Virus record (IMG/VR): IMGVR_UViG_3300029249_000109
Span: 47,352 to 111,351 of that record
Reading direction: 5' to 3' (one strand)
DNA length: 64,000 bases
DNA from: a virus
The translations under genes were made by a program, and so were the position numbers. Below, piece by piece: positions 22,165 to 63,511 of the stretch (position 1 is its first letter; the number at the start of each line of letters is the position of its first letter). Under the pieces are notes generated by a model. That model ran no database searches and had not been told where the DNA came from. It was given only the letters and a program-made list of their open reading frames with translations.

Positions 22165-22781
22165 AGTGATTTCCAGAAATCTCCTATATACATAACAAAG
22201 TCGCGGATGATATCATAACAAAAAGTATTCGCAGAGGGAACTCCGGTAGTACAACAGCTGTGCTGCCGGGGTTTAATGCGGCTGCGGGTTCTGCAGAGCC
22301 TGTACTGGTCCCAAGCCCAGAACGCGAGCAGCGTAAACAGAAGGGCGCTCCACCGCTCTAGTGAAATTTGATTTGATTTTGAAGCAAAGGCCACGCGGAT
22401 AAATCAATGATAAAAGTAAACTAGAGGGTGTTACTTGAAGTGAGCGAAACTAAACGAAAGGAGGGTTTATAGCTTGAATTGTAAAATCAGTTACCGCTCG
22501 CTAGGAGTGGTCTTTGGTGCAGGAGTCGCGTCTTGCTCCACTGAGCGAAATTTCATGGGATGGCGATACAAGCTGTTCTGACACGCAGCGGCTGAAATTT
22601 TTCAAATTAAATAGAATTAACGCTGTAAGTGATCGTTGCATCCGAATAAGCGCACACATACATACGAGATCGACGGGAGTCGCAACTAGGCATAATCGAC
22701 CCGTAAGTCTCTTATAGAGCTGGGTGGTTCCCGAACGGACAAGTTGACCGTATGTTAAGGAGTTTTCAGAAACCGGGCGAC

Positions 22782-27056: not shown

Positions 27057-27336
27057 TACCGGTACACGTCGCCAGAACGGCATAGACGGCGATATACGCT
27101 GTTTTGATGTGCTGTAATGGAATTTCATTACGAAGAACGGAAAAGCTGCTGTAGGGCTTCTTAGCCGCCTTAGAGGGCGTGCACACTGTAAGATTGACAT
27201 CGTGTATGTATCATATGTACGAAATGAGGTGATATTATGACCGCGTTCGATAACACATCTTAGGCGAATACACTCGTGACAAGTACCGCAAGACAGTTAT
27301 CGTAAGACATCGAGATGAATACGTATTTCAGTTACG

Positions 27337-27356
27337 GCTGCCGGATAACCGACAGT
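27337..27356 (+). ncRNA. Conserved hairpin element (motif family 1, copy A): GCUGCCGGAUAACCGACAGU
   Basis: Three copies in the window (also 39121 and 41000) share a CUG/CAG stem and the loop CCGGNUNACCGA. The closing pair is G.U here versus C-G in copy B, which fits RNA-level pairing on the plus strand. Confidence 0.35.
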
Positions 27357-27657
27357 TTCGAAAAGGTAGGATGAAAGGAGGGTAGAGGCGGACAGGCGTC
27401 AGGCGAGTGAGTCGAGGACCAAACGGCGTGGCCAGTGCCACGAAGCAGCGGAGATTAAGCGAACTCCGTATTCCCAGGGTCCAACTCACAAACTCGGGAC
27501 AGAAAGAGAAGTGTTTACCTGGCAAGGCAACCAAATAGGCAGGCACTAGTACCCGCCGATGCCCAGCCTCGACATCTTAAACGCCCCGTACGTAGATTAT
27601 AAAAACTTGGTAGTATATCTTTAGATCTCGATGATAGCAAAAAAGAAACAAAAAATA

Positions 27658-34370: not shown

Positions 34371-34628
34371 ATGGAGGTTTATGTCCTTTATGACTGTGTC
34401 GAAAATCCCGACGAATGGGCGTTTTCGGGTGTGGAACATGTTTATGCGAATCATGCAGACGCGGTAGATCGGATGCAAGATTTGTTCTTAGAGTGTTTGA
34501 ACGAACACGACATAAATGATGCAGAAAGTATGCAAGATACCTACATTGACGATTGGGGAGCGCGTGTTGCAGACGTTCCTGCTGGCTATCGTCACACATG
34601 GACAATTACGGAGGAGACAGTTGTATGA
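34371..34628 (+). CDS. Hypothetical protein
   Basis: RBS taggaggtgccagt. Confidence 0.5.
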   Translation: MEVYVLYDCVENPDEWAFSGVEHVYANHADAVDRMQDLFLECLNEHDINDAESMQDTYIDDWGARVADVPAGYRHTWTITEETVV

Positions 34629-34849
34629 AATACGATTTACATGTTGGACAATTAGTAAGAATCGGCAATGAAGTGTCTAAAACCGATGCGAATCGCCACA
34701 AAAGAGGGCGTATCGTAAGATTTAATGGAGATTGCCCAATCGTAGAGATGTTAGATCCATTTGAGAGTGGACAAACAACGATTACTTGGTGTCCGCAGAG
34801 ATTTTGGGAGCCGTGTCCAACAAAACTTACTTGCAAATCACTTTTGTGA
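34625..34849 (+). CDS. Small protein of the YK-x-K-VGDKVRIR-like paralog family ending in -TCKSLL (tag set)
   Basis: Start at MKYDLHVGQLVRIGNEV (ATGA overlap); C-terminus PTKLTCKSLL. Confidence 0.55.
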   Translation: MKYDLHVGQLVRIGNEVSKTDANRHKRGRIVRFNGDCPIVEMLDPFESGQTTITWCPQRFWEPCPTKLTCKSLL

Positions 34850-35984: not shown

Positions 35985-37502
35985 ATGGCTTTCACAGCTT
36001 ATTTCAGCAAGATCGGTTCGAGAGATTGCGACGAAGCATATCCGTTGATTCTGAATTGTGACAACAGCAATCTCAACGATAATGTGGTGTTGTCTGTACT
36101 GCGCGTTCTGATCAATGATGACCGCATTAAACATTCTATTTCGAGAGGACATTGCATTCAGTCGATTATTGATTGTCAGCAGTTCTATATGGGCGATGAC
36201 GAAAAGTTCACTAAGGACATGTTCGTTCATGAAGATAATGCTTTCAATCAGATGAAGTATGGCATCATGTTTCAGGCAATCGACGATAAGAAAGCAGACG
36301 CCATTATCTCTGAGTTCAAGAAGTATAATGCGGATTACGAAGCTGTCGGTTGGAAGATCATGGATGTTGCAGCTAAGTACATCGATAAGAATGGCAACGT
36401 CTATGTATATCAGAACGAAAAGAAGCAGGGTGTTGTCGTTGTTTGTGCCAAGAAGAATCTGATTCAGGCCATGCACATGGCGGCGAGTTGTTTGCCCAAT
36501 CTGATGCCGTGGCTTTTCGCGGATCAGCCGTTGACTGATGATGAGAAGGCAATGCTGCGCACTCTTTATGATCAGGACAACGAAGCTTTCGGCAAATACA
36601 TGGAGAAGGCATATGAGACCGGCGACTTCTATGGTAAGAAGTTGCGTGGCGCTCTGAAGGGATTTTGCAAGAAGGACTACGCCAACGAAATTTCTCGGCA
36701 GGAGCGATACATTCGTGAAATCCAAAATGATATCGAAGATAAATATAACGCTATCCGTGATAGAAATAAAAGTCTTGAAGAAGCTCAATTTAAACTTACT
36801 ATGATCATGGACCGTTCTTGCTGCACTGAGGATGACGAAGCTGCAATTGTTAATTTCCTGAAGCGCTGCAAGACGCTGGTTTATCTTGGCTCCGATAGTG
36901 ATCGAATCTATATTGGTTATGTTGGCACGCTGAACGATTGTGATGAGGGCGAGTTCCGCACTTGTGTTGAGAAAAAGGCAAATAGTCGAAGCTACATTTT
37001 TCAGCGTTCGCCGTATGACACGGAACTTACGAAAGATTTCTTTGTTTCAATTTGGAAGACCCATCGGTTCGCCATTCGCACCTACTGTGAATGGCGACTG
37101 TATTCCAGCTGCAAGGTTGAAGCAATTCGTGGTTCTGATATGCAAGGCCGCTCTGATTTAATGAAGGATCGTATTCGTCAGCCTCATATCGATCGGCATG
37201 CGTGCTATAGCGGTTATCGAGAGATGCTCAATGCGCTTAGTGTAAAACACGATTACATTGGCGTCCTGACTACGATTATTGGTTCAAGTGCATCTCTCAA
37301 CTGGAAGGATAGCACCGTTGTAAGCGATCTCATGTACGATTTGTTTGACGAATCCTATATCAAAACTCGGAAGTGTATCGAGGATAACGCGGGCAACCTG
37401 TACACGGTGGCAGAGGTGTTCGACATTCTTAAGAACGAGAAGAGCGCAGCAGCACCAGCAGAAGCAGTAAAGAAGGAGGTCGTTGAAGATGAAGCCCATT
37501 AA
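35985..37502 (+). CDS. Hypothetical large protein (505 aa) upstream of the JAB/E1 pair
   Basis: RBS ataggaggaaatacgt; no recognised motif. Confidence 0.55.
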   Translation: MAFTAYFSKIGSRDCDEAYPLILNCDNSNLNDNVVLSVLRVLINDDRIKHSISRGHCIQSIIDCQQFYMGDDEKFTKDMFVHEDNAFNQMKYGIMFQAIDDKKADAIISEFKKYNADYEAVGWKIMDVAAKYIDKNGNVYVYQNEKKQGVVVVCAKKNLIQAMHMAASCLPNLMPWLFADQPLTDDEKAMLRTLYDQDNEAFGKYMEKAYETGDFYGKKLRGALKGFCKKDYANEISRQERYIREIQNDIEDKYNAIRDRNKSLEEAQFKLTMIMDRSCCTEDDEAAIVNFLKRCKTLVYLGSDSDRIYIGYVGTLNDCDEGEFRTCVEKKANSRSYIFQRSPYDTELTKDFFVSIWKTHRFAIRTYCEWRLYSSCKVEAIRGSDMQGRSDLMKDRIRQPHIDRHACYSGYREMLNALSVKHDYIGVLTTIIGSSASLNWKDSTVVSDLMYDLFDESYIKTRKCIEDNAGNLYTVAEVFDILKNEKSAAAPAEAVKKEVVEDEAH

Positions 37503-38385
37503 CATCACGGAGCAGGTTGCAGCAGATATGGCACGAGAGTTCATTCAGGAACTGTATAAGACCGGTAGGGTTAAGACGGATTCCTTCTCATACAAGAAAA
37601 ATTTTGCGTCTGTTAAGAAGGACGCCGTCGAGGTGAATTTCACCTACGAAGCGTATTCTCAGATGTTTGCGTTGATTGATCACTTCGATTGTGAGGTTGC
37701 ATGGCGCGGCATCGTGAATCGCATCGATAAGACGCATTTTCAGATTACCAAGATTCTGCTGTATCCTCAGACTGTAACCGGCACTACCGTAGACACCGAT
37801 CAGGAAGAATTCTCAAAGTGGTTTCAGGCGCTGCCTGTTGAAACGATTCGCAACCTGAGATTTCAGGGACACAGCCATGTCGATTTCGGTGTAACGCCGA
37901 GCAGCCGCGATATGGAGGATCAGTGGCGATTCATTGACGGACTCAAGCCGACGAGTTATCAGATTTTTATGATCTGGAACAAGAAGCGGCAGTATAACGT
38001 TCGCGTCATTGATCTGGCCGACAATGTTATCTATGAGGGAGCCGATGTCAAGGTTACTGTTGGAGATTTTGACTCGACTCGATTTCTCGAGGATGCAGAC
38101 AAAACGGTTCGAAAGCGCCCTGTATATGTCGCAAGCACAGCCGCAAATTACGGAGCTTATGGAGCAGGCACCTATTATGGTAAAGCAGTTACGCCGCAAA
38201 AAACATACCCGCAAACAGTTGCCACGCAAACGCCAGTGCCGCAAATCAAGACGGTAACTGGTGCAGCGGCTCCGAAAGTCAAAGAAACGTCTGAGAGTCG
38301 GTATCCGCTGGTCAATTATTATAAGGAGAATCCAGAAGATCTTGATGCATGCTGGAATTCCAGCTGTTTCCCGTATGACAATTAA
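37483..38385 (+). CDS. JAB/MPN+ (JAMM) metallopeptidase
   Basis: GHSHVDFGVTPSSRD matches the JAMM motif H-x-H-x7-S-x2-D. Confidence 0.7.
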   Translation: MKMKPINITEQVAADMAREFIQELYKTGRVKTDSFSYKKNFASVKKDAVEVNFTYEAYSQMFALIDHFDCEVAWRGIVNRIDKTHFQITKILLYPQTVTGTTVDTDQEEFSKWFQALPVETIRNLRFQGHSHVDFGVTPSSRDMEDQWRFIDGLKPTSYQIFMIWNKKRQYNVRVIDLADNVIYEGADVKVTVGDFDSTRFLEDADKTVRKRPVYVASTAANYGAYGAGTYYGKAVTPQKTYPQTVATQTPVPQIKTVTGAAAPKVKETSESRYPLVNYYKENPEDLDACWNSSCFPYDN

Positions 38386-38400: not shown

Positions 38401-39075
38401 ATGAATCTGAGTAAGCTTGAAATGGTATTCAATCCCGATGATATCAGCGGCCAGATCCACATTATTGGTTGTGGCTCGGTTGGCTCTACTGTGGCAGAAC
38501 TTCTCGCACGGTATGGCCTGAAGAATTTCACGCTGTGGGATATGGACGAGGTTGAAAGCAAGAATATTGTCAACCAGATGTTCTTCGCCAACAATATTGA
38601 GGCTCCAAAAGTCGAGGCGGTTCGCGATATTATCTGCGCCATCAATCCTGATGCCAAAGATGAAATCGTTCTGAAGCCGAATGGTTGGCAGGGCGAGATG
38701 ATTCGCGGTTATGTATTCCTCGCAGTCGACAATATCGAAATTCGCAAGCAGTTCATGGAAGTGAACAAGTACAATCCGAATATCAAGGGTGTGTTTGATA
38801 TCCGCACTGGGTTCCATGATGCACAGTGCTGGGCAGCAGATTGGAGCAAGGAAAAAGATCGAGAGAATTTATGGAACTCTATGAATTTCTCTCATGAAGA
38901 TGCGCAGGCTGGAACTCCGGTTTCCGCATGTGGTATCGTTCAGGGTCTTGCCCCGACTGTTCGTTTTGTGTGTTGTTTGGCGGTTACAAACTTTATCAAT
39001 TTCGCAACTAATATCGCACCTTTGAAGAAAATGATCGTTGCAAATCCGTATACTTTTAACGTTACGGCTGCATAA
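38401..39075 (+). CDS. E1/ThiF/MoeB-like adenylyltransferase (ubiquitin-activating-enzyme-like Rossmann domain)
   Basis: IIGCGSVGSTVAELLARYGL (GxGxxG) and DMDEVESKNIVNQ match the ThiF/MoeB/E1 nucleotide-binding core. Confidence 0.7.
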   Translation: MNLSKLEMVFNPDDISGQIHIIGCGSVGSTVAELLARYGLKNFTLWDMDEVESKNIVNQMFFANNIEAPKVEAVRDIICAINPDAKDEIVLKPNGWQGEMIRGYVFLAVDNIEIRKQFMEVNKYNPNIKGVFDIRTGFHDAQCWAADWSKEKDRENLWNSMNFSHEDAQAGTPVSACGIVQGLAPTVRFVCCLAVTNFINFATNIAPLKKMIVANPYTFNVTAA

Positions 39076-39120
39076 AGAATAAATAAAAAATCGTGATGAA
39101 TTACTGTTGAAATATACAGT

Positions 39121-39140
39121 CCTGCCGGATGACCGACAGG
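39121..39140 (+). ncRNA. Conserved hairpin element (motif family 1, copy B) in the structured intergenic region upstream of the reverse transcriptase
   Basis: CCUGCCGGAUGACCGACAGG. Further hairpins follow (acccg-caag-cgggt; ggtatcc...ggatacc), consistent with an RT-associated ncRNA. Confidence 0.35.
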
Positions 39141-39379
39141 TTCGTAAAGGTAAGAGCATGTACGCCCCACCGGTCAGCCGTGATCATGATCGACCGGCCG
39201 CGCCCGGCGACTCTGCAGGTATATAGATTTGTTGACCGAAATAATTAACGAAGACACGTACCCGCAAGCGGGTTCAAATGCAAAACTCGCAGGAAGGTAT
39301 CCACTGAAGGCGGATACCTTGAGGAGGCAACCACTAACAACCACTGTTTAGATCACGATTTAGAAGAAGAGGTAAACAT

Positions 39380-40615
39380 ATGTACGTTACTTATTGGAAT
39401 CCACCGAGAACAAGGCAGATTACGTTTGACGAAATCCTTAGCGGAGTCGTTGATGTGAATCAGTTGAAATATGCTGGCGATGAAACTTCTACTCGAACCG
39501 TACAGCGCGAGGGTTTGAATGATCGTTTAGTGGCTATCACAAATGTCACTAGTATGATCACACAGCTGACGGAATTTAATCAGAAATATGCTCGTCTTGA
39601 AGCAGTACATGACCTGTCGACGTATTACTACCACTTTGAAATCCCTAAGAAAACTGGTGGATTTCGACCGATTGATGCCCCGACAAACGAACTGAGTGAT
39701 GCGTTGGTTGAGTTGCGGACGCTATTAAAAAGTTTCATGATTGCTGATTATCACACGGCAGCACACGCATATATCAACGGGCGCGGCACTCTGAGTGCGA
39801 TTAAAAAGCATCAGGCGGGGCACAGATATACAGTAAAAGATCGCGAAACTGGAAAAGAAAAGATCGTCACTTATGAAAATAACTGGGCTGTCAAGTTTGA
39901 CTTTCATGGATTCTTTCCGAGTTCCACTCCTGAGTTTATCTACGGTATGTTCAGCAAGATTTATCCGTTTTCTCTTATTATGAAAGATCGAAATGGATAC
40001 AACCAGCTGACTAAAGCGATGCGCTTGTGCTTCTTGAACGGCGGTCTTCCGCAGGGAACGCCAATCAGTCCGTGGATCACGAACGTTATGATGATCCCGT
40101 TTGATTATATGTTAAACAAGAAGCTTTCTTACAAATATACCATGAAAGACGGCATTTCTCGCACTTTTACATATACCAGATATGCAGACGATATCACTAT
40201 CAGTTGTTATCTGAGTTTTGACCCGATGGAAATGCAGGATATTATCAAAGAGACGTTGGATGCAATCAATGCTCCGTTTACTTTGAATGAAGAAAAAACG
40301 CATTATGGCAATCGGCATTCGAGCGAAAACTGGATGCTCGGTCTGATGTGGAACGCCAATAACGATATCACAGTTGGATGGCGTAATTTTAAGGACTTCA
40401 AGAAGATGGCATCTAATTACATCGTCTGCAAGAAAGAAGGAAAAACGTGGGATCTTGAAGACCTGCAGCAGTTTAATGGCAAGTTGAATTACTACCGTAT
40501 GGTTGAAAAAGAATCAGTTGATGCGGTAATCTCTCGATACAATGAAAAATATCGTGTTGACATGATGGCAATGCTCAAAGCTGACTTAAAACCAAAAGAA
40601 GGAGTTGTTTTCTAA
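39380..40615 (+). CDS. Reverse transcriptase (retron/Abi/UG-like bacterial RT, RT domain only)
   Basis: KKTGGFRPIDAP (RT motifs 1/2), TAAHAYINGRGTLSAIKKH (matches the Ec86 retron DAAHGFVPGRSIITNAKKH region), LNGGLPQGTPISPWITNVMM (motif B, QGxxxSP) and YTRYADDITIS (YADD catalytic motif). Confidence 0.85.
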   Translation: MYVTYWNPPRTRQITFDEILSGVVDVNQLKYAGDETSTRTVQREGLNDRLVAITNVTSMITQLTEFNQKYARLEAVHDLSTYYYHFEIPKKTGGFRPIDAPTNELSDALVELRTLLKSFMIADYHTAAHAYINGRGTLSAIKKHQAGHRYTVKDRETGKEKIVTYENNWAVKFDFHGFFPSSTPEFIYGMFSKIYPFSLIMKDRNGYNQLTKAMRLCFLNGGLPQGTPISPWITNVMMIPFDYMLNKKLSYKYTMKDGISRTFTYTRYADDITISCYLSFDPMEMQDIIKETLDAINAPFTLNEEKTHYGNRHSSENWMLGLMWNANNDITVGWRNFKDFKKMASNYIVCKKEGKTWDLEDLQQFNGKLNYYRMVEKESVDAVISRYNEKYRVDMMAMLKADLKPKEGVVF

Positions 40616-40953
40616 TGATTGAAATGATGTGTAGAGATGGCGGCACTCCAGTTGAATTGCTCGATCAGGCGGCAAATGTCGTAGAGGAATCCATTGGGTG
40701 TCCAGTTGACCTGTTGGATATCGACGACCACAGAGCAATGGTCTATTGGGGGCCGTCTGATGTTGCAAGCGCAATCAAGGAACTTGGCATCAAAGAAATC
40801 GATGCAGAGGATATGAGCTTATGTGCAGATCTTTTGTGTGATTTTGAAGTGAAAATTCATCAGGCAATGCTTGAGGCCGGACACGACGCTTTACAGACTT
40901 GTTTGGAGTGTCTTGTTGATGAACTGCGAGAGCAGGACAAAGAATCAAAGTAA
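40615..40953 (+). CDS. Highly acidic small protein translationally coupled to the RT (TAATG overlap)
   Basis: 112 aa rich in Asp/Glu; could be an RT accessory or effector. Confidence 0.5.
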   Translation: MIEMMCRDGGTPVELLDQAANVVEESIGCPVDLLDIDDHRAMVYWGPSDVASAIKELGIKEIDAEDMSLCADLLCDFEVKIHQAMLEAGHDALQTCLECLVDELREQDKESK

Positions 40954-40999
40954 TTATATATTGTAATCTCTTTTGAATATCGGGCGTTCTACGTCGCGA

Positions 41000-41019
41000 G
41001 CTGCCGGTTGACCGACAGT
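41000..41019 (+). ncRNA. Conserved hairpin element (motif family 1, copy C) downstream of the RT operon
   Basis: GCUGCCGGUUGACCGACAGU, followed by the hairpin ggctgcc-aaccaca-ggcagcc. Confidence 0.35.
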
Positions 41020-41297
41020 TATGAAGAATACCACAGCACGCTCATACGGGCTCTAGGGCTGCCAACCACAGGCAGCCTCGCCCTCCTGAGCTATGGATTA
41101 AATTAGTTCGCAAGAGGAGTCTCCGTTCTGCAGCCTAGATCCCAGCAGAGCTGGAGATCGCGGCTGCCATCACTGCGACTCATTGGCCATCAGAACATTT
41201 ACTCGATAATGCTTCCGGGATCGAAGATCCCTCCAAATTATCTCGCAAATGTTCTTCCAGCCAAACTATTACTCACAATTTAGAAAAGAGATTGATT

Positions 41298-41561
41298 ATG
41301 GATTACAAATATAAAGTTGGCGATAAAGTAAGAATTCGGAAAGACTTGACAGCCGGCGCAGAATATCCAATGCAAAGCGGAGAAAAGTATGGTTACGATC
41401 CGGGAGTCAATGAGGCTATGGAAACGTATCGTGGACAGATTATGACAATCGACCATCAAATCTGCGGTGTTTATATGCTCTGCGAGGACAGCCACTATTG
41501 GAGTTGGACTGACACGATGTTTGAATCACCAAAATCGCTTACATGTAAAAGTCTTTTGTAA
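41298..41561 (+). CDS. Small protein of the YKYKVGDKVRIR paralog family ending in -TCKSLL (tag set)
   Basis: MDYKYKVGDKVRIRKDL...KSLTCKSLL. Confidence 0.6.
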   Translation: MDYKYKVGDKVRIRKDLTAGAEYPMQSGEKYGYDPGVNEAMETYRGQIMTIDHQICGVYMLCEDSHYWSWTDTMFESPKSLTCKSLL

Positions 41562-42394: not shown

Positions 42395-42667
42395 ATGAAC
42401 TATAAGTTTAAACCCGGAGATAAAGTAACGGTTAGAAAAGATTTATCAAATCGTGAAGCATACAAGATGTTGTCAGGAGAAACTCCAAATGATGCTATTC
42501 TTGCTACTTCTTCTATGGAAAATTTTCGAGGAAAACAAGTCACAATCGAGGGCTATGATTGTTGTTGTAGTTCAATGTGTTACAGGGTAAAAGAAAGCTC
42601 CAGATATTGGGCAGATGAAATGTTTGAAGAATCTAAAAAACCGTTTACATGTAAAAGTCTATTATGA
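42395..42667 (+). CDS. Paralog ending in -TCKSLL (tag set)
   Basis: MNYKFKPGDKVTVRKDL...KKPFTCKSLL. Confidence 0.6.
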   Translation: MNYKFKPGDKVTVRKDLSNREAYKMLSGETPNDAILATSSMENFRGKQVTIEGYDCCCSSMCYRVKESSRYWADEMFEESKKPFTCKSLL

Positions 42668-42683: not shown

Positions 42684-42968
42684 GTGTCGAAAAGCAAGTA
42701 CAAATATAAGAATGGAGAAGTGGTTCGCGTCAGGGAAGATCTTCAATCTGGAGTAGTTTATTACATGAAATCTGGTCCAGAACCGAATGCCAATGGCATT
42801 GAGACGTCATGGAGCGGACGCGGACAAGTAGGTTATCGTGGACAAATTGTACATATTTCTCATAAAGCAAACGGTCGATACAAAATTCTTGAGGATGGAA
42901 AAACATATTATTATACGGATGAAATGTTTGATCGTCCTAAGAATCTGATTTGCAAAAGTTTGCTGTGA
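42684..42968 (+). CDS. Paralog ending in -ICKSLL (tag set), GTG start
   Basis: MSKSKYKYKNGEVVRVREDL...PKNLICKSLL; RBS aaagaggtaagag. Confidence 0.6.
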   Translation: MSKSKYKYKNGEVVRVREDLQSGVVYYMKSGPEPNANGIETSWSGRGQVGYRGQIVHISHKANGRYKILEDGKTYYYTDEMFDRPKNLICKSLL

Positions 42969-42977: not shown

Positions 42978-43232
42978 ATGGATTACAAATATAAAGTTGG
43001 ACAAAAAGTAAGAATTCGTCGTGACCTTGGTTGTCAAGAAAGTTACAAAATGGTAAGTGGACCAAAACCAGGCTATGATCCTGGGTTTTCATTTAGTATG
43101 TGTAAATACGCTGGCAAAATTACAACTATCTTAAATTGTAACATTACGTACGAAGTAGAAGGATGTAACTGGACGTGGTCCGACGAGATGCTTGAACCGG
43201 TAAACCAGTTTTGTTGTAAATCATTATTATAA
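42978..43232 (+). CDS. Paralog ending in -CCKSLL (tag set)
   Basis: MDYKYKVGQKVRIRRDL...VNQFCCKSLL. Confidence 0.6.
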   Translation: MDYKYKVGQKVRIRRDLGCQESYKMVSGPKPGYDPGFSFSMCKYAGKITTILNCNITYEVEGCNWTWSDEMLEPVNQFCCKSLL

Positions 43233-43244
43233 AGGAGAATGAAA

Positions 43245-45317
43245 ATGTCTGATTTTAAGAAATTTCGTGCACTGCTGCAGGACCACTTTAATGAGATGGT
43301 GAAGAGTGGGAATCCACTGTTTATCACCGATGCAGACGAGGATGAACTGTACAATCTGTATCTCGACAGTTTCCCGGCCGGCACGAATGAGTTGTTCCGT
43401 AAGCGGCGCGAGTATGATTGCTCCTGCTGCCGCCGTTTTGTAAAGAATATCGGCAAGCTGGTGGCGTTTAACAAGAATTATAATTTGATTTCCATCTGGG
43501 ATTTCGATGCAAAGTCTGCCAAGTATCAGCCTGTTGTTGATGCGCTGGCTGCCTATGTAAAGAGCCGCGCCATTGTGAATCCATACTTTGTCAGCCGTAA
43601 TATGATCGGTTCTGGCGATATGTTCGGCACCGAGATGAACTACGAGTATGACGAAAACCACAAGGATGTGCATACTTGGGATCATTTCGCAGTCAAGATT
43701 CCGCAGCGTTTTATTATGCGGCCTGATGACGTGTCTACTAAGATGGCACAGTGGCGTGACTCCGCAAACGTGTTCAAGCGTTCTCTGGAAGGGCTAACCA
43801 TGGAGGCTGTTGATACTGTGCTGGAGCTGATTGCTCAGAATAGTCTGTATCGCGGCAAGGAGTTTGAGCGGTCTGTAAAGGAGTTTAAGCATGATAAGCT
43901 TGATTATGACAAGCTGTCTGTTAATGAAAAGCTTGCCTTTGTATGGCTTGCCCCTACGTATGCTACGGCGGCACAGCTTCGCATTCGTAACACCGCTATC
44001 GGCACCCTTCTTATCAATTTGAGTGAGGGCATGGATGTGGATTCCGCCGTTACCGCCTTTGAGAAGGTTGTTGCTCCTGCAAACTATAAGCGTCCCAAGG
44101 CGATTTTCACCAAGAAGATGCTGGAAGACGCACAGAAGACCGTTACCGAGCTGGGCTATATGAGCAGTCTGGGTCGTCGGTTTGCTACTCTGGACGATAT
44201 CACCGCCAATAATATCCTGTTCTGCAACCGGGATGCTGCCCCTCGTATTGCTGGTGCTACAAATCCGTTTGAAGCAATGGCTAAGACTGTTGCGATCGAT
44301 CCCAAGAAGTTTGGCCGCGCAGAGGAAATTGGCATCGACAAGTTCATCAAGGACGTGCTGCCGACTGCGACTGGGCTGGAGCTGTTCATGGAAAATCGTT
44401 TCGAGAAGAATATGATGTCTCTGATTGCGCCTCAGGATAAGAGTGCGCCGAGTATGTTCAAGTGGCCTAATGGTTTCAGTTGGGCATATACCGGCAATAT
44501 GGCAGACAGCGATATTCGCGAAAACGTTAAGGCTGCTGGCGGCAAGGTCGATGGCGTGCTGCGTTTTTCTATTCAGTGGAACGATAAGCCGGGCGAGTGG
44601 GATGAAAACGATGAGGATGCTCATTGCATTGAACCCGATAACAATCACATCTATTTCGGAAACTGTTGGAATCATTATACTGATGGCCGCCTGGATGTGG
44701 ATATCACTCATCCTAATCAGGGTAAGGCTGCGGTCGAAAATATTACATGGCCTGATATCAAAAAGATGAAGGAAGGCGAGTACAGCTTCTATGTGAGATG
44801 CTTTGCTAGTCGTGGCGGTAAAACTGGTTTCCGTGCTGAGATCGAATTCGATGGCAACATTTACTCGTTTAATTACGATAAGCCGCTACATCAGGCTCAG
44901 AGTGTCGCTGTGGCAAAAGTCATGCTGAAGGATGGTAAGTTCTCTATCAAGGAGCTGCTGCCCAGTTCTACCAGCACCCGCGAAATCTGGGGTGTGAATT
45001 CCAATCAGTTCGTACCTGTGTCTGTGGCGATGTATTCTCCGAACTACTGGGATGAACAGACTGGTAATGGTAATCGTCACTACTTCTTCATGCTCAAGGA
45101 TTGTGTCAACCCTGAAAAGCCCAATGGTTTCTACAATGAATTTCTGAAGGCGGAACTGTTACAGCATAAGCGAGTATTTGAGGCTCTTGGTTCTCAGATG
45201 GCGGTTCAGTCGGTAGATGACCAGCTGTCTGGCGTTGGCTTCTCTGAGACGAAGCATGATTCCTTTATTGTCAAGGTTCAGGGCGCTACTGAGAGAGTTC
45301 TGAAAGTGGTGATTTAA
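43245..45317 (+). CDS. Large hypothetical protein (about 690 aa)
   Basis: RBS aaaggagaatgaaa; no recognised motif. The long antisense ORF 43794..44711 is judged an artefact. Confidence 0.6.
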   Translation: MSDFKKFRALLQDHFNEMVKSGNPLFITDADEDELYNLYLDSFPAGTNELFRKRREYDCSCCRRFVKNIGKLVAFNKNYNLISIWDFDAKSAKYQPVVDALAAYVKSRAIVNPYFVSRNMIGSGDMFGTEMNYEYDENHKDVHTWDHFAVKIPQRFIMRPDDVSTKMAQWRDSANVFKRSLEGLTMEAVDTVLELIAQNSLYRGKEFERSVKEFKHDKLDYDKLSVNEKLAFVWLAPTYATAAQLRIRNTAIGTLLINLSEGMDVDSAVTAFEKVVAPANYKRPKAIFTKKMLEDAQKTVTELGYMSSLGRRFATLDDITANNILFCNRDAAPRIAGATNPFEAMAKTVAIDPKKFGRAEEIGIDKFIKDVLPTATGLELFMENRFEKNMMSLIAPQDKSAPSMFKWPNGFSWAYTGNMADSDIRENVKAAGGKVDGVLRFSIQWNDKPGEWDENDEDAHCIEPDNNHIYFGNCWNHYTDGRLDVDITHPNQGKAAVENITWPDIKKMKEGEYSFYVRCFASRGGKTGFRAEIEFDGNIYSFNYDKPLHQAQSVAVAKVMLKDGKFSIKELLPSSTSTREIWGVNSNQFVPVSVAMYSPNYWDEQTGNGNRHYFFMLKDCVNPEKPNGFYNEFLKAELLQHKRVFEALGSQMAVQSVDDQLSGVGFSETKHDSFIVKVQGATERVLKVVI

Positions 45318-45589
45318 TGGCTCGTTACAAAGTTGGGGATAAGGTGCGGGTGATTGATAACTTTATGCAATATGGGAACTATTTTATGCGAGACCGGAGT
45401 AATAAACCCGGATATGCTATAACAGTCAAGTGGTCATTAGAAGAAAGAATGAAACTTGCTGGAAAAATTGTGACGATTGCTGAAGTTGGAGAATACTACC
45501 GAATCGAAGAAGACAACCATAGTAAACATTGGACTGATGATATGTTTGTTGGCACAGCAAAATGTCTTGTTTGTCGGTCGTTACTGTAA
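45317..45589 (+). CDS. Paralog ending in -VCRSLL (tag set)
   Basis: MARYKVGDKVRVIDNF...AKCLVCRSLL; ATGA overlap with the upstream gene. Confidence 0.6.
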   Translation: MARYKVGDKVRVIDNFMQYGNYFMRDRSNKPGYAITVKWSLEERMKLAGKIVTIAEVGEYYRIEEDNHSKHWTDDMFVGTAKCLVCRSLL

Positions 45590-46006: not shown

Positions 46007-46210
46007 GTGAAAGATAATGAAGCGGCTGGCATTGTACGATTCAGAGATTTGAAAGAACCCACTGACGAACATATGGGCATTCTTTTTGGAGACGGAAAGA
46101 TTTTGTGCTTGTGCTGCGGCGGGTGGGTTCCTCTTGGAGAATATGAGATCATTGAGGATTACAATGGCTTTGAATATGTTGAAGAAAGTTTAATGGAGGC
46201 GTTACGATGA
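46007..46210 (+). CDS. Small Cys-containing protein (GTG start)
   Basis: RBS gagaggtggttagtc; CLCCGG motif. Confidence 0.45.
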   Translation: MKDNEAAGIVRFRDLKEPTDEHMGILFGDGKILCLCCGGWVPLGEYEIIEDYNGFEYVEESLMEALR

Positions 46211-47310
46211 AAATTGTCGAAAGTTCTGGCCGTTTACATCTGTATGGCGACGATATGCAGGCTTACGATCAGATCCCAGCTGGCACATATGACATTTGTT
46301 TCGCTAAGATGACCGGTTTTTATTTGACTCGTCGTCCAGATATGGTTGTCGATGAAAAGGTGTACGGTGTTGCCAATGAGAAGGCAGCCAAGGTAATGAG
46401 TACGTTTAAGGTGTTTACTCGGAATCTTGGTGTGATCCTCAGCGGTGATAAAGGCATTGGTAAGTCTCTGACTGCTAAAATGATTGCTAAGACTGCGGTT
46501 GATGCAGGCTATCCTGTTATTTTGGCAAACGAGTACATTCCTGGTATTGCTAGTTTTATTGAATCCATTACGCAGGAAGTTATGGTTCTGTTTGATGAGT
46601 TTGATAAAACTTTCCGTTCTACAGACAACGAAAATCCGCAGGATACTATGCTGAGTCTGTTTGACGGAACTACGACTGGAAAGAAGTTGTTTGTTGTTAC
46701 TTGCAATCAGTTGCGTAGTCTGAACGATTATCTTGTAAACCGTCCGGGTCGCTTTCATTATCATTTTCGTTTCGATTATCCGCAGGCTGAAGAGATTCGT
46801 ACTTATCTACAGGATAAGCTTGATCCAAAGTATTATGGCGAAATTGAATCTGTTATCCAGTTCTCTTCTCGCGTCACTTTGAATTACGATTGTCTGCGAT
46901 CCATCGCTTTTGAGTTGAATCTCGGTACCTCATTTAAGGATGCCATCATGGATCTGAATATCATCAATCTGGACGACATGGCCTATACCGTCACGGCAGT
47001 AACTGAAAGTGGCAAAAAGTCTGTTAGCCATGGTAGTTATGATTTGTTTAATGGCGGTCATGATTATTCTGATTACTTCACCCCAATTGTGGGCAAGGAC
47101 AGTTATTTGATTCGGTTCAATACGGATAATATTGAATTCGATCAGAAGACTGGAAAATGTATGATTTCTGGTGAGAATCTCAGAGTCGAAAACCCGTATG
47201 ACCGAGATTATGAGTGGGAAAAGGCAGATTACGCTGAATTTGAAAAGGAAACGGTTAAGTACATTATGTTTGAACGTCGTGGTGGGCGTAGCCTACATTA
47301 CGCGGTTTAA
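46207..47310 (+). CDS. AAA+ ATPase
   Basis: GDKGIGKS (Walker A), VLFDEFDK (Walker B) and RPGRF (sensor/Arg-finger-like). Confidence 0.7.
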   Translation: MKIVESSGRLHLYGDDMQAYDQIPAGTYDICFAKMTGFYLTRRPDMVVDEKVYGVANEKAAKVMSTFKVFTRNLGVILSGDKGIGKSLTAKMIAKTAVDAGYPVILANEYIPGIASFIESITQEVMVLFDEFDKTFRSTDNENPQDTMLSLFDGTTTGKKLFVVTCNQLRSLNDYLVNRPGRFHYHFRFDYPQAEEIRTYLQDKLDPKYYGEIESVIQFSSRVTLNYDCLRSIAFELNLGTSFKDAIMDLNIINLDDMAYTVTAVTESGKKSVSHGSYDLFNGGHDYSDYFTPIVGKDSYLIRFNTDNIEFDQKTGKCMISGENLRVENPYDRDYEWEKADYAEFEKETVKYIMFERRGGRSLHYAV

Positions 47311-48150: not shown

Positions 48151-48303
48151 ATGAAATTTAATAAAGAAGAAATCTATAACGCACTTGATATTCTGACTTG
48201 TCAAATCCAAGAGTCTGACGAGCTCGGATGGTGTTGTAAGCAGGAACTGAAAAATGTCCTTGACGATTACTTCCGACTAATTGAAAAGGAGAATATGAAA
48301 TGA
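48151..48303 (+). CDS. Small hypothetical protein (50 aa) between the Prs-like and NAMPT-like genes
   Basis: RBS gggatgaggattgat; ATGA overlap with the downstream gene. Confidence 0.4.
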   Translation: MKFNKEEIYNALDILTCQIQESDELGWCCKQELKNVLDDYFRLIEKENMK

Positions 48304-49778
48304 TCAATATTAACCCGATGCTGCTGTGTGACTTTTACAAGACAACGCACAGTAAGCAGTTTCCGGCCGGCACTACCAAGCTGGTCAGTTACTTCACGCC
48401 TCGTATGAGTCGGTTGGATGGCGTGGATGAAGTTGTTGTGTTTGGCGTTCAGGCATTTTGCAAGGATTATCTGGTGCAGTATTTCAACGACAACTTTTTC
48501 GACGAACCAAAAGAAATGGTCGTTCCTCAGTATAAGCGATATCTGGATGCGACCATTGGTAAGGATGCTTACGATCTGAGCAAGATTGCAGCGCTACATG
48601 ATCTGGGATATCTTCCTGTTGAAATCAAGGCACTGCCAGAAGGCACTCGTTGCCCCATCCATGTGCCGTTCCTTGAGATGAGCAATACGCACCCTGATTT
48701 CGCATGGGTTCCGCAGTTCCTTGAATCCTTTATGAGCTCTGAGCTGTGGCATCCGATGATTTCTGCAACGGTCGGAACTCTGTATCGCGATATCGTGGAC
48801 AAGTATTACGATGAAACAGTGGAGGATGGCGTGCCACATGCTCGTGCTCTGGGTGATTTCAGTTTCCGTGGTCAGGAGTGTATGCAGTCGGCAGTTAAGT
48901 CAAGCGCCGGTTGGTGCTTGAGCTTTCTGAATACGGCTACTGTCCCTGCGATTCCGTATCTGGAAGAAATGTATCGTTGCAATTGTGAAGAAGAGCCCGT
49001 TGCATTCGGCGCTGTTAGTACCGAGCATAGTGTGATGTGTTCCAACTTCGCAGTCGATGGCGATGAGATCACTTTCATCCGCCGGGCGCTGACTGAGCTG
49101 TATCCCAATATGAATTTCAGCATGGTGTCTGACTCCTACGACTATTGGAATCTGGTTGATAACATTCTACCGCAGCTCAAGGATGAGATCATGGCACACA
49201 ATGGCACACTGCTGATTCGTGGCGATTCTGGCGACCCGGTCGAAATTGTTACGCAGACGGTTTATCATCTGTGGGATATCTTCGGCGGCACGGTCAACAG
49301 CAAGGGTTATAAGGTGCTCGACCCTCATGTAAAGGCTCTGTATGGCGACTCTATCACTGTGCAACGCTGTGAAAAGATTTATGCCGAGCTCAAAGCACAC
49401 GGTTTTGCCTGCAACAATGTCAGTCTTGGCGTTGGTTCTTTCTCCATGCAGTGCATCGAGCAGAATGGTCAGTTGAAGCCGTTCACTCGCGATACTTTTG
49501 GCATGGCAGTCAAGGCAACTTATGGCGTGGTCAATGGCAAGGAGATTCAGATCTTCAAGGACCCCAAGACCGACACCGATCACTTTAAGAAGAGTCTGAA
49601 GGGTATGTGTTATGTCACTAAGGATGATTCTGGAAAGCTGGTTTGTACTGATGGCCTGATGGATCACGCTGCTCATTCTGACGGAAACATGCTGCAGCCT
49701 GTATTCCGCAATGGCGCGATGATTAAAGAATACAGTTTGAAGGAAGTCCGCGACCGACTGTGGGGAGGGAAGTTCTGA
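48300..49778 (+). CDS. nadV: Nicotinamide phosphoribosyltransferase (NAMPT/NadV)-like enzyme; candidate nicotinamide-ADPR transferase
   Basis: 492 aa of NadV-like length. The N-terminus MININPMLLCDFYKTTHSKQFP resembles phage NadV proteins. Confidence 0.65.
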   Translation: MININPMLLCDFYKTTHSKQFPAGTTKLVSYFTPRMSRLDGVDEVVVFGVQAFCKDYLVQYFNDNFFDEPKEMVVPQYKRYLDATIGKDAYDLSKIAALHDLGYLPVEIKALPEGTRCPIHVPFLEMSNTHPDFAWVPQFLESFMSSELWHPMISATVGTLYRDIVDKYYDETVEDGVPHARALGDFSFRGQECMQSAVKSSAGWCLSFLNTATVPAIPYLEEMYRCNCEEEPVAFGAVSTEHSVMCSNFAVDGDEITFIRRALTELYPNMNFSMVSDSYDYWNLVDNILPQLKDEIMAHNGTLLIRGDSGDPVEIVTQTVYHLWDIFGGTVNSKGYKVLDPHVKALYGDSITVQRCEKIYAELKAHGFACNNVSLGVGSFSMQCIEQNGQLKPFTRDTFGMAVKATYGVVNGKEIQIFKDPKTDTDHFKKSLKGMCYVTKDDSGKLVCTDGLMDHAAHSDGNMLQPVFRNGAMIKEYSLKEVRDRLWGGKF

Positions 49779-56193: not shown

Positions 56194-56306
56194 TGAATTA
56201 TATTTTGAGATTATTATCTCGATTTATTGATTTCTGCCTTGATTGGGCATGGTTAATTGTTCCGATTTGGGCATTTTGTTTTATTGCTGTGATGTTAATA
56301 ATCTAA
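56190..56306 (+). CDS. Small membrane protein (38 aa)
   Basis: Translates to MMNYILRLLSRFIDFCLDWAWLIVPIWAFCFIAVMLII; ATGA coupling. Confidence 0.35.
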   Translation: MMNYILRLLSRFIDFCLDWAWLIVPIWAFCFIAVMLII

Positions 56307-56326
56307 AGCGTAAAAAGGTGGTAAAA

Positions 56327-57130
56327 ATGACACGAGAAGAATTACAACGTATCATTGCGAGTGAACCGTATGATTTTCTACGTACTGATCCTCACCTTGG
56401 TAAGCATTTGATGTTTCTGACTATTGGCGGCAGCCATGCTTATGGAACGAATGTAGCAGGATCAGATGTTGATATTCGCGGTGTCGCTTTGAACTCCAAA
56501 GAGGATCTACTCGGGTTGGGTGAGTTTGAACATCATGTAGATACGGTGACGGATACAACGGTATTTAGTTTCAATAAAGCTGCGAAGTTATTGTGTAGCG
56601 GGAATCCAAACATGTTAGAACAACTCGGTAACGCAGATGAACTAGTTATCGATTATCATCCTACTACTAGACTGTTGACGGAAAATAAAAATTTATTCCT
56701 GTCGAAAAGGGTAATCTATTCATTTGGTGGATTTGCAGGAAAGCTGATCAAAGAAGCAGATGCTAAATGGCGTGCGTACCTGTATGAAGTTGAAGAATCT
56801 GGCGTGAATCCAAATGTTAAACCGTATATTCCATATGGAGAAAAACGTTTCAATAAGACTGTAATGAATGCGATTCGTTTATATCATATGTTGTTTGACA
56901 TTTTAGAAAAATGTGAAATCAACACTTATCGTGGGGCCGAGCACGATGTTTTGATGCAGATTCGAAACAGTGACTACGACTATGAAGAGTTGCGTAACCA
57001 TGTGATTCCTGTGTATGAGGCTAGACTGCAAGTTGACAAAAAGGAAAGTGAATTGCCAAATCACGTCAATATGAAGTTGGTCAATGAGTTAGTTGCGGCT
57101 ATCAATGAGCAGGCGCTAAAGGTGGTGTAA
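56327..57130 (+). CDS. Pol-beta-superfamily minimal nucleotidyltransferase (KNTase/Lnu/ANT-like)
   Basis: LTIGGSHAYGTNVAGSDVDIRGV fits G[GS]x9-13Dh[DE]h. RBS aaaggtggtaaaa. Confidence 0.6.
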   Translation: MTREELQRIIASEPYDFLRTDPHLGKHLMFLTIGGSHAYGTNVAGSDVDIRGVALNSKEDLLGLGEFEHHVDTVTDTTVFSFNKAAKLLCSGNPNMLEQLGNADELVIDYHPTTRLLTENKNLFLSKRVIYSFGGFAGKLIKEADAKWRAYLYEVEESGVNPNVKPYIPYGEKRFNKTVMNAIRLYHMLFDILEKCEINTYRGAEHDVLMQIRNSDYDYEELRNHVIPVYEARLQVDKKESELPNHVNMKLVNELVAAINEQALKVV

Positions 57131-60304: not shown

Positions 60305-61375
60305 ATGGATATTAGTCAGCAGCTTTACAACGCAGAACAGAAAAACCTTTTTATAGAAGATTACATTGTCACAACAGGAAAATCAAAGCAATGTAATGAA
60401 ATCGAGAAGAGAAAGAGGGCTGTTAAGTTTCTGCGTGGGGTATCAAGTTTCGAATACCAGCACAACAAAGACTTTTGTACGTTTAAGATTGGCAGCGAAG
60501 AAATGAGATCCGTTTATGTTGGATGGCTTAACAATTGTTCGGAATCTACGGTTCGAATTGCCATATCAATTCTTCGTCAATATGTAAAATGGTGCTATAA
60601 AAAAGAGATCATTGATTATGCAACATATGCTAGTCATGCCTTGATTTCAAAGAATTCGGAACTATATATAAAGAGCGATACGGAAATGTCAATTCCAACA
60701 AAAATCACTTCTCCAGTGTTTTTAGCACAAAATATATCAGCGATGGAGAACGAATCAAGTGTTGGAGATGATTTTGTTTTTAAAACCGAAAATGGTTACT
60801 TTAACTATTTAAACGTCTTATTTGAAGACGATAAATATACAATGCCGGCTGCCGTTATGACTTTGTTCTACTACGGATTTTCAATTGAAGAAATACGTAG
60901 TCTGTACAGAAGAGATGTCGATTCTTCTGAAAGACGCATTCGAAACGTTATAATCGAAAACGAAACGGCAATGAAGCTGATTGAACGTGCAAAAAATTTG
61001 GATTCTTATGTCATTATTAAAGAAGATGGATATAAGAGAACAGAATATTTCATGGACTCAACACGTCTGATTCGCAATACTAGCAGAGGATGTGGAATGG
61101 TTTCCGAAGACCAAAAGATACCGAAAGAGTATTGCCACAAAATGAGGCAGTATCAGCTGATGGCATCAAAAAAACTTCCTCGAAATTCGAAATATAAAAA
61201 CGTCTTCATAAAGATGCCAACCGTGCAAAAACTTAGAGATTTTTATAAAATCTATAGAGACGAGCAGGAATTAGGCATCGAAGAGGTTAGACGTCGTTTC
61301 AACAATGGAACGTATAATGTGCAATTTGACTTTTATGCATATAAGATAATGGCATCTAAAGCGCGTGATATATAA
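60305..61375 (+). CDS. Tyrosine recombinase/integrase (second one; AT-rich gene)
   Basis: LFYYGFSIEEIRSLYRRDVD (box I Arg region), CHKMRQYQL (HxxR) and C-terminal FDFYAYKIM (Tyr). Confidence 0.55.
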   Translation: MDISQQLYNAEQKNLFIEDYIVTTGKSKQCNEIEKRKRAVKFLRGVSSFEYQHNKDFCTFKIGSEEMRSVYVGWLNNCSESTVRIAISILRQYVKWCYKKEIIDYATYASHALISKNSELYIKSDTEMSIPTKITSPVFLAQNISAMENESSVGDDFVFKTENGYFNYLNVLFEDDKYTMPAAVMTLFYYGFSIEEIRSLYRRDVDSSERRIRNVIIENETAMKLIERAKNLDSYVIIKEDGYKRTEYFMDSTRLIRNTSRGCGMVSEDQKIPKEYCHKMRQYQLMASKKLPRNSKYKNVFIKMPTVQKLRDFYKIYRDEQELGIEEVRRRFNNGTYNVQFDFYAYKIMASKARDI

Positions 61376-62053: not shown

Positions 62054-62128
62054 AGCTGGTGTAGCTCAGAGGCAGAGCACGGTACTTGTAATGCCGGGGT
62101 CGAGATTCCGAAATTCTCCACCAGCTCC
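62054..62128 (+). tRNA. tRNA-Thr (anticodon UGU)-like with an atypical T-arm (T-loop tccgaaa, mismatch in the T-stem); could also be a phage attP core
   Basis: Acceptor gctggtg/caccagc, D-arm tagctcagaggcagagc, stem cggta/tgccg with loop ctTGTaa, encoded CCA. Confidence 0.5.
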
Positions 62129-62180
62129 ATTGAACGGCGGTAGCCGCATTAAAGATTACATATTTTAAAGGAGTAAGATT

Positions 62181-62822
62181 ATGACTACTGAAACTATGAC
62201 AATTCATCGCGGTCTGGCAGAGTTGAAGGTTATTGAAGATCGCATCAACAAGCTTCTTCGTGAAGCTAAGTTTTGTGCACCAGCTAAAAAGAGTATGAAG
62301 AAGTTGGATGGTGTGGATATCGATGAGTTTAAAACAAATGCTCAGTCCGTTTTCGATAAGATCACTGCACTGATTTCAAAGCAGGCAGCACTTAAGCGAG
62401 CGATTTCCGAATCCAACGCAAAGACTTATGTTACTGTGGCCGGGGTCAATTTCACCGTTGCAATGGCAATTTGGATGAATCAGCATGGCATTGATTTCCA
62501 GAGTGCACTGCTTAATGTAATCGATCGCCAGTACTCTAATGCCACTGCCGTAATTGAAAATGCAAACGCTCGTCTGAGTGATCGTGCTGACGCTTTTGTG
62601 AGCGCTACGAATTCCGCTTCAGATAAGAACAACATGGATGCTGAGACTCTGAAGGAAATCCGCCAGGATTACATGGATCGCGAGACTATGGCCCTGGTTG
62701 ATGGTATCGATGTTAAGAAGGTAAAGAGCGAACTGGCTGATAAGATCGATAAGTTCAAGGCCGAAGTCGATGCGGCACTGTCTGCTTCTAATGCTGTGAC
62801 TGAGATCACGATTGAATACTAA
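62181..62822 (+). CDS. Hypothetical protein with GC3-rich codon usage
   Basis: RBS aaaggagtaagatt; 213 aa, helical/coiled-coil character. Confidence 0.55.
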   Translation: MTTETMTIHRGLAELKVIEDRINKLLREAKFCAPAKKSMKKLDGVDIDEFKTNAQSVFDKITALISKQAALKRAISESNAKTYVTVAGVNFTVAMAIWMNQHGIDFQSALLNVIDRQYSNATAVIENANARLSDRADAFVSATNSASDKNNMDAETLKEIRQDYMDRETMALVDGIDVKKVKSELADKIDKFKAEVDAALSASNAVTEITIEY

Positions 62823-63129
62823 GTTGTAACACCGCAAGGTGTCTACATAATCACTGTTTATCGAAAATGACAAACCGTAATAGTTCGCTTTTGTTTGTAG
62901 GGACTTGCTTAAGCGAAATCAAAATATAAAAAGCTAACACCTATATAAAAGTGGCCTCATAAGCCTCCAAGATGAAAAAGCAAGTTTATATAAATAATAC
63001 TTGACTTTCTGATTTGCTAAATGGCTAAAGCGACAGACAGAAAATCTGTAACTGTAGGTTCGAATCCTGCATCAGAAAACAAAATCGATCAGTAAGCGGA
63101 ATCAACCCAAGGGAAGATACGAGCTGATC

Positions 63130-63210
63130 AAATTCATCCGGAAAGGTTAAAGTTTACGATTAAAGGTTAAAGGTTGAAAGTTCAAAGCTTAAACTTCTAG
63201 CTAAAGATTA
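63130..63210 (+). repeat. Degenerate tandem 8-9-bp repeats (aaaggttaa/aaggttgaa/aagttcaaa)
   Basis: ggaaaggttaaagtttacgattaaaggttaaaggttgaaagttcaaagcttaaacttc; iteron-like. Confidence 0.4.
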
Positions 63211-63352
63211 ACGTATAACGAATACAGGTCAAAGAATATTAAAATCCATGAGTTTGTGTTTGTGGATCAATTACGTAAGTCCCGTCGTTTACCACATGGC
63301 TGATAAATGGTGAACGCCTTGGCAGGGGCGTAACAATACCTGCCGTTTATAT

Positions 63353-63426: not shown

Positions 63427-63431
63427 CTTAT

Positions 63432-63505: not shown

Positions 63506-63511
63506 CTTCGT

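Follow-up and report, generated by a model that had tools for sequence, protein, structure and literature searches.

A probable phage-borne retron of an undescribed type with three dispersed template-like RNAs in a large phage of gut Clostridia

The window studied here, a 64,000-nt stretch of viral DNA (positions 47,352 to 111,351 of the IMG/VR record IMGVR_UViG_3300029249_000109), probably contains a phage-borne retron of an undescribed type, in which one retron-type reverse transcriptase (RT) is combined with three dispersed template-like RNAs of ~300 nt. A preliminary description of this DNA had reported the RT operon and a repeated hairpin. Bacterial retrons comprise an msr-msd non-coding RNA (ncRNA), a retron RT and an effector, and have been classified into 13 types (Mestre et al. 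2020, PMC7736814). The system in the window differs from all 13 types: its partner proteins are others, its RT has several dispersed templates, and the template body takes another form. To our knowledge, descriptions of retrons, mainly from Proteobacteria, comprise a single RT, a single template RNA and a single toxic effector.

The reverse transcriptase is retron-type

The RT gene is located as follows.

39380–40615, + strand: retron-type reverse transcriptase, 411 aa; Pfam RVT_1 at residues 88–310; motifs LPQGTPISP and YADD

The gene had been described from these motifs as an RT without maturase or endonuclease domains. Our analysis agrees: RVT_1 was the sole Pfam domain of this open reading frame (ORF), which further contains an N-terminal extension of ~80 aa and a C-terminal thumb/region Y. 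The best PADLOC model was retron RT_II-A (2.9e-37), and the top 25 models were all retron RT models. A search of the PDB yielded 12 matches, all of them retron RTs (Ec83, Ec78, Ec67, Ec86 and Kva2). In NCBIfam, retron_St85_RT ranked first (4.4e-43), followed by group II (3e-16), Drt2 (3e-10) and Drt3a (8.8e-06); the group_II_RT_mat score was 59.5 bits against a cut-off of 300, and Drt2 and Drt3a remained far under their cut-offs. Judged by these profile and structure-database matches, the RT belongs to the retron or retron-like class and is not DGR-like (diversity-generating retroelement) or group II-like.

Signatures of retron RTs are the motif NAXXH in region X, of which the H is most conserved, and VTG in region Y, of which the G is most conserved (PMC7736814). 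In the RT family of the window, region X reads A-I/V-K-K-H and region Y reads x-L-G. Hence, the N, A, V and T were not kept, whereas H144 and G321 were invariant in 32 homologues, as were Y268, D270 and D271 of the active site, whose YADD motif did not vary. The RT is under purifying selection.

Three msr-msd-like ncRNAs share one layout

The hairpin sequence CTGCCGGNTNACCGACAG (18 nt) occurred three times in the window, at 27338, 39122 and 41001, always on the + strand; no copy was expected by chance, and 100 shuffles gave no match even with two mismatches permitted. The coordinates of the three copies and their outermost closing pairs were confirmed, with C-G at 39121/39140 and G.U at 27337/27356 and 41000/41019. 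In relatives, G.U was the most frequent pair at this position (22 of 32), which supports the earlier reading of the hairpin as an RNA transcribed from the + strand.

We rejected the hairpin as a generic terminator because it lacks a U-run, is present in only three copies in ~150 kb and shows covariation. On the + strand no U-run followed the hairpin, and a terminator scan flagged it weakly and on the minus strand only. The complete ~150-kb genome of a near-identical phage in IMG/VR contained three hairpin copies in total. About 30 further exact matches to the 18-mer in IMG/VR were located on unrelated contigs without the surrounding motifs, in line with chance expectation.

In every copy, the hairpin turned out to be the second stem-loop inside a non-coding element of 274–329 nt. 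The repeat that had been noted is thus real and important, but it represents merely one stem-loop of three complete msr-msd-like ncRNAs.

27308–27633, + strand: ncRNA A, 326 nt, msr-msd-like, 12 kb upstream of the RT gene and before an Ant/Bro-like gene; 5′ arm 27308–27316, G 27317, hairpin 2 27337–27356, UUUAG 27620–27624, 3′ arm 27625–27633
39088–39361, + strand: ncRNA B, 274 nt, retron msr-msd-like, between the ThiF gene and the RT gene; 5′ arm 39088–39097, putative priming G 39098, hairpin 1 39103–39120, hairpin 2 39121–39140, variable body about 39166–39340, UUUAG 39347–39351, 3′ arm 39352–39361
40965–41293, + strand: ncRNA C, 329 nt, msr-msd-like, downstream of the acidic-protein gene; 5′ arm 40965–40974, G 40975, hairpin 2 41000–41019, UUUAG 41279–41283, 3′ arm 41284–41293

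All three ncRNAs consist of a 9–10-nt arm, a G, AAUA, hairpin 1, hairpin 2 (the one reported before), a single-stranded stretch, a body, UUUAG and a 3′ arm. In each copy the 3′ arm is the exact reverse complement of the 5′ arm, which gives a closing stem of 9–10 bp. The short conserved single-stranded stretch after hairpin 2 reads GUUCGNAAAGGUA in A and B, from which C deviates with GUUAUGAAGAAUA. The bodies are 170–250 nt long and contain 52–55% G+C, compared with 43% for the window.

A search for arms of at least 9 nt followed by G, with TTAG and the reverse complement of the arm at the other end, found three sites on the + strand, where 0.165 were expected on both strands together. These sites coincided exactly with the three hairpin sites. 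Likewise, a covariance model of the 5′ domain produced exactly three matches over the 64 kb (B 66, A 65.8 and C 50 bits), with the next match at 14 bits. The non-coding stretches folded better than their shuffles, with z-values of −3.3 for the stretch upstream of the RT (B), where hairpins had already been noted, −6.4 downstream of it (C) and −2.1 at 27.3 kb (A). In the predicted folds of A, B and C the ends are paired, hairpins 1 and 2 are formed, and the body is arranged in several helices. Rfam models did not match any part of 38900–41400, neither at gathering nor at permissive thresholds.

The body of ncRNA B was 66–69% identical to that of close relatives, whereas its flanks were 93–96% identical. 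At least two alleles of this body (39166–39340) occur, in element forms of 274 and 264 nt, with 66–69% identity between flanking genes of 93–96% identity; as extracted, with 3 nt of flanking sequence at either end, these forms measure 280 and 270 nt. For ncRNA C, the body was 92–94% identical to that of relatives, a divergence not exceeding that of its flanks. Therefore, we rejected hypervariability as a feature of the bodies in general, since it holds for B and fails for C. Allele replacement in the body of ncRNA B fits an arms race; ncRNA C does not have such a pattern.

The divergence of the B body relative to its flanks, together with the weak group II RT/maturase match (3e-16), might point to a DGR that uses the bodies as template repeats, or to a remnant of a group II intron with the RT as its maturase. 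Yet, blastn of the three elements against the window recovered the shared 5′ part only and no second copy of a body, a template/variable repeat pair was not found in the window, and the RT matched no DGR family. The corresponding motif of DGR-type RTs also differs from the LPQGTPISP of the window RT. As for an intron, Rfam intron ribozyme domains and maturase or endonuclease domains were not found, and the group II score was far from its cut-off. Because no body is copied elsewhere in the window and no Rfam intron ribozyme was detected, we reject the DGR and group II explanations as very improbable.

Ends and hairpins are maintained by covariation in relatives

Homologues of the RT number in the thousands in metagenomes, and relatives with 36–99% RT identity retain the combination of ncRNA and RT. 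Nearly all of 60-odd phage loci in IMG/VR (63–99% RT identity) have one element upstream and one element downstream of the RT operon. The closing arms vary between lineages, but their complementarity is always kept. For instance, the arms of ncRNA C covary among relatives as TCTCTTTT, TCACTTT, TCATTTT and CTCTCTT, each with its own complement.

The closing stem was tested independently of pairing, by locating 5′ domains with nhmmer and searching 150–420 nt downstream for a partner of the 8 nt before the G. A partner matching at all eight positions was present in 199 of the 202 distinct elements, in comparison with 35 and 33 of the 202 in two controls (about 17%); nine different arm sequences occurred across the tested elements. 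In an alignment of 32 diverse 5′ domains, hairpins 1 and 2 were 89.8% paired, against 28–35% with slid partners. Their covariation score was 0.80 as opposed to about 0.1, and none of 500 shuffles attained it. The G directly after the 5′ arm was invariant in the 32 elements and also present at distant loci, and T-G-N-A-T after the 5′ arm was invariant in this alignment as well. The G.U pairs in the alignment of the 5′ domain fix the strand of the RNA.

Terminal inverted repeats of 9–13 nt around ~300 nt, in several copies per genome, are also what MITE-like miniature inverted-repeat elements would look like if they had been scattered by transposition, with terminal repeats that mimic a closing stem. 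However, the three copies resemble each other over the 5′ 75 nt only and each has different terminal arms, the positions are syntenic across phages of 63–99% RT identity, and the G.U pairs and compensatory changes indicate selection at the RNA level on one strand. Transposed elements of this kind are therefore a far-fetched explanation.

The type of hairpin 2 tracks the RT clade and is common to all ncRNAs within one genome. In the clade of the window it reads CUG-C-CGG-NUNA-CCG-A-CAG, and in a clade with 65% RT identity N5-A-GGC-YAA-GCC-N5, with a variable outer helix of 5 bp and a bulged A. The position of element A is conserved in relatives, and in the 65% clade the Ant/Bro-like gene is preceded by two elements in tandem. 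In L154–L214, at about 660–956 and 1051–1335, such a tandem msr-msd-like pair is found where the window has element A alone. Elements of the form arm-G(A/U/C)AU...AG-arm adjoin RTs of 36–50% identity as well, sometimes two in tandem, and several distant loci (L239, L241, L270, L281 and L294) have one element upstream and two downstream of the RT. The tandem elements and this one-plus-two arrangement imply that the number of templates per RT is variable; some genomes have four or more ncRNAs. The downstream element C, a tyrosine recombinase and the acidic protein are confined to the close phage clade.

In the window, each of the three ncRNAs directly precedes a gene (A an Ant-like gene, B the RT gene and C a CxSLL paralog), their 3′ arms overlap or adjoin the ribosome-binding region, and for B and C no promoter or terminator of their own was evident. 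These observations would suit phage regulatory or processing RNAs (leaders, small RNAs or RNase sites) with a common protein-binding hairpin, next to an RT with an unrelated template or role. This explanation is decidedly unlikely. It does not account for the hairpin type changing along with the RT clade, it offers no obvious regulatory reason for an invariant G and UUUAG where the stem closes, and in distant genomes the elements are always situated beside the RT, upstream or downstream, regardless of the neighbouring gene.

Alternatively, the RNAs may be templates of a system of the defence-associated RT (DRT) or unknown group (UG) kind, in which the complementary DNA (cDNA) would be primed otherwise (from a protein or a 3′ end) and possibly be repetitive, without a 2′-5′ branch, and in which the closing stem and the G would serve folding or processing only. 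The weak likeness of the RT to the Drt2 (3e-10) and Drt3a hidden Markov models is in favour of this alternative, as are the incomplete NAXXH and VTG motifs and the long, multi-branched RNAs without a single msd hairpin. Still, retron RT models outperformed DRT models by more than 25 orders of magnitude, every solved relative of the RT is a retron RT, and the geometry of arm-G and AG-arm is retron-like and invariant over 200 elements. Moreover, no stop-free frame ran through a whole element in either sense (longest 57–82 codons of about 90–110). Synthesis of a gene from cDNA, as in DRT2, was rejected because no frame is open through any of the three elements. On balance we consider a DRT-like system unlikely, and a retron the probable identity of the RT and its RNAs.

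The RT belongs to a conserved operon

Four further genes surround ncRNA B and the RT gene.

35985–37502, + strand: protein X, 505 aa, first gene of the module, weakly UBC/RWD (E2)-like
37483–38385, + strand: JAMM/JAB-type metallopeptidase-like protein, 300 aa, JAMM motif, weak PADLOC JAB match
38401–39075, + strand: ThiF/E1-like adenylating enzyme, 224 aa, Pfam ThiF 1.6e-20
40615–40953, + strand: acidic protein, 112 aa, 27 D+E versus 8 K+R, isoelectric point 4.08, its start overlapping the final base of the RT stop codon

Protein X has two alpha/beta domains linked by a long helix, and its C-terminal domain, which is weakly UBC/RWD (E2)-like, contains a conserved P-H-I-x4-C motif. Searches of Pfam, NCBIfam, PADLOC and PHROGs, and a Foldseek search against the PDB, gave no match to protein X; in BFVD it matched one uncharacterised phage protein. 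The second protein has an intact JAMM motif, E...HSHV(x5)PSxxD (HxHx7Sx2D), which is conserved in 54 homologues, and weak matches to PADLOC JAB models (E = 0.003). The ThiF protein matched the PADLOC E1-E2 model (CBASS Cap2-type) at 1.6e-15, and its motifs GCGxxGS, DxDxVxxxNxxNQ and AC are conserved in 58 homologues.

These three genes are packed tightly against ncRNA B and the RT gene. A similar arrangement was found in two phages, L224 (a relative) and L227, as well as in an integrative element of an Oscillospiraceae metagenome-assembled genome (MAG; L225/L226) and a plasmid-like or integrative and conjugative element-like contig (L228). In each of them the RT is preceded by three genes, encoding X (450–505 aa), a 250–300-aa protein and ThiF (about 226 aa), and then by a gap of 300–370 nt. 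We also compared 69 loci from GTDB species genomes, almost all of them MAGs of gut Clostridia. X, JAB, E1 and RT had the same order and strand in about 50 of the 69, and the RT stood alone in four or five. Together with L224–L228, this order was seen in at least three different surrounding contexts.

The preliminary description had taken the operon to consist of the RT and the acidic protein. Their coupling is real, in that the two ORFs overlap by one base (TAATG), but the operon extends upstream to 35985 and includes the genes of the E2-like protein X, the JAMM protein and ThiF, which had been overlooked. The acidic protein had no family match in Pfam, PADLOC, NCBIfam or PHROGs, and only five close homologues, all within the close phage clade. 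It is a lineage-specific accessory and not a conserved partner of the RT; the conserved unit is X, JAMM peptidase, ThiF/E1-like enzyme, ncRNA and RT. The likeness to retrons or DRT systems that had been proposed thus stands for the retron-type RT and its structured RNA, but not for the small acidic protein. Nor do we find support within the phage family for a mobile insertion that interrupts an array of paralogs, as had been suggested, for the segment is syntenic in all relatives and its position is conserved; it is no recent insertion. The whole module nevertheless occurs in different mobile elements.

Neither a CD-NTase nor a beta-grasp ubiquitin-like protein was recognised in the module. 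From their sequences, proteins ending in C[KRH]SLL are candidate substrates of conjugation, and this tail may serve as a recognition tag of the neighbouring E1 and JAMM enzymes. Twelve ORFs of the window end in C[KRH]SLL: six on the minus strand with unrelated bodies, and six SH3-like paralogs with a WxDEMFE motif.

9859–12211, − strand: C[KRH]SLL ORFs
34550–34849, 41292–41561, 42395–42667, 42684–42968, 42978–43232 and 45293–45589, + strand: C[KRH]SLL ORFs

SH3-like homologues are located between the JAB/E1 genes and the RT at the distant loci L248, L285 and L250. The tails of these proteins in L248 and L285 (...ESLLGIGSK or ...GALLGERG) resemble that of a ubiquitin-like precursor; the tail in L250 does not.

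Distribution of the module and other features of the window

The module is hosted by phages and other mobile elements of gut Clostridia. The only relative among GenBank phages is the metagenomic, unannotated MT835544 (L001). At 8236–8713 in this record, the genes of the RT and the acidic protein are separated by an additional ORF of ~159 aa that the window lacks. Among plasmids, the only relative is an RT with 35% identity on pBTHD789-2 of B. thuringiensis HD-789, without E1 or JAB. This RT (L298, 5815–8745) is apparently split by a group II intron and adjoins dnaE and ligA. In the collections searched, no member came from an isolated phage or a cultured host (MT835544, the sole GenBank phage record, derives from a metagenome). 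The literature searched, of which our coverage was incomplete so that a prior description is possible, contained no phage-encoded retron with multiple ncRNAs and no link between retrons and ThiF/JAB.

The window also contains a twister ribozyme, thirteen tRNA genes in two clusters, and accessory genes of large phages.

22230–22320, + strand: type-P5 twister ribozyme, 46.5 bits, above the Rfam gathering score
29211–33558 and 62055–63584, + strand: two clusters with thirteen tRNA genes in total
6475–9042 and 12939–14285, − strand, and 46207–47310, 48300–49778, 56243–57130 and 60305–61375, + strand: large-phage accessory genes, namely a YonO/RdRP-family RNA polymerase-like gene (PF05183), PhoH, a STAND/AAA NTPase, NAMPT (NAD salvage), an RlaP nucleotidyltransferase and a second, larger tyrosine recombinase
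43239–45317: DUF8224, which is present in the syntenic relative L224, as is an RNA ligase

Discussion

The system of the window resembles retrons in several respects. Its RT is closest to retron RTs and has an ncRNA as a neighbour on the same strand. This RNA has paired ends, a conserved G after the 5′ arm, and RT-specific 5′ hairpins (one to three in retrons, two here). The system further has a variable template part, accessory genes in the operon, and carriage on mobile elements. Unlike in retrons, however, three ncRNAs accompany the RT of the window, one upstream, one downstream and one 12 kb away, and relatives have up to four or more per RT. The RNAs measure 264–337 nt, and their body is multi-branched where a retron would have one long msd hairpin. 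Further differences are that the RT retains NAXXH and VTG only in part and that the system is encoded by phages of 100–150 kb from gut Clostridia. As partners it has an E2-like protein, an E1-like enzyme and a JAMM peptidase, none of which belongs to the 13 retron types (PMC7736814).

By analogy with retrons (PMC7736814), the C-terminal region of the RT would bind hairpin 2, which is common to all three RNAs. The RT would then prime from the 2′-OH of the G beside the closing stem and copy the variable body from UUUAG towards the 5′ end. One enzyme would in this way make three msDNAs, branched molecules of RNA and DNA that differ from each other. Since their genes share an operon with the RT and ncRNA B, the X, JAMM and E1-like proteins would take the place that effector proteins occupy in known retrons. 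[quoted passage not shown]

Several points weigh against the assignment to retrons. The retron_St85_RT score of 147.6 lies below the family cut-off of 235 which, together with the partly retained NAXXH and VTG motifs, places the RT in a divergent lineage. The RNAs in the window are longer than most retron ncRNAs. A single conserved long stem was not found in their variable bodies, which cannot be aligned; conservation is limited to the ends and to hairpins 1 and 2. RT homologues at L245, L253, L260 and L261 lack E1, JAB and X over a distance of 5 kb, and the module may seem more tightly linked than it is because related phages are syntenic. Finally, the msDNA, the branch point and the activity of the RT are all predictions from sequence.

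E1-like and JAMM motifs such as those of the module also occur in type II CBASS (cyclic oligonucleotide-based antiphage signalling system), with Cap2 (E1-E2) and Cap3 (JAB), and in the ubiquitin-like Bil defence system (BilABCD). In contrast to CBASS and Bil, the module of the window is paired with a reverse transcriptase and template RNAs rather than with a CD-NTase, its E1 and E2-like proteins are encoded by separate genes, and a beta-grasp ubiquitin-like protein was not recognised in it. Prophage-borne retrons of E. coli (e.g. Ec67 and Ec73) have a single ncRNA, Toprim or NDT effectors, and small temperate phages as hosts. The retron of the window is likewise accessory cargo of a phage genome, but of a large phage, where it is found among tRNA genes and putative anti-defence genes.

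The module would most likely be a conflict system, for the exclusion of competing phages or for counter-defence, in which the DNA made by the RT acts on a ubiquitin-like conjugation module by sensing or regulating it. Either it would shield the infected or lysogenic cell against other phages, or it would counter the immunity of the host. A more specific version of this idea is rather doubtful: that the module represents a new class of conflict systems, a retron wired to a ubiquitin-like conjugation machine. Several RT-DNAs from dispersed templates would then act as sensors, scaffolds or acceptors that control the conjugation of C[KRH]SLL phage proteins by E1, E2 and JAMM, and thereby exclude rivals or disarm host immunity.

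If our interpretation is correct, retron RTs can be naturally multiplexed through a common recognition hairpin, which would be useful for retron-based DNA production and genome editing. A conserved link with E1, E2-like and JAMM proteins would mean that ubiquitin-like regulation, so far known from CBASS and Bil, extends to systems with a reverse transcriptase. Members of the family abound in large, uncultured phages of Clostridia from the guts of humans and animals, and mark an unexplored part of the conflict between phages and their hosts or among phages.

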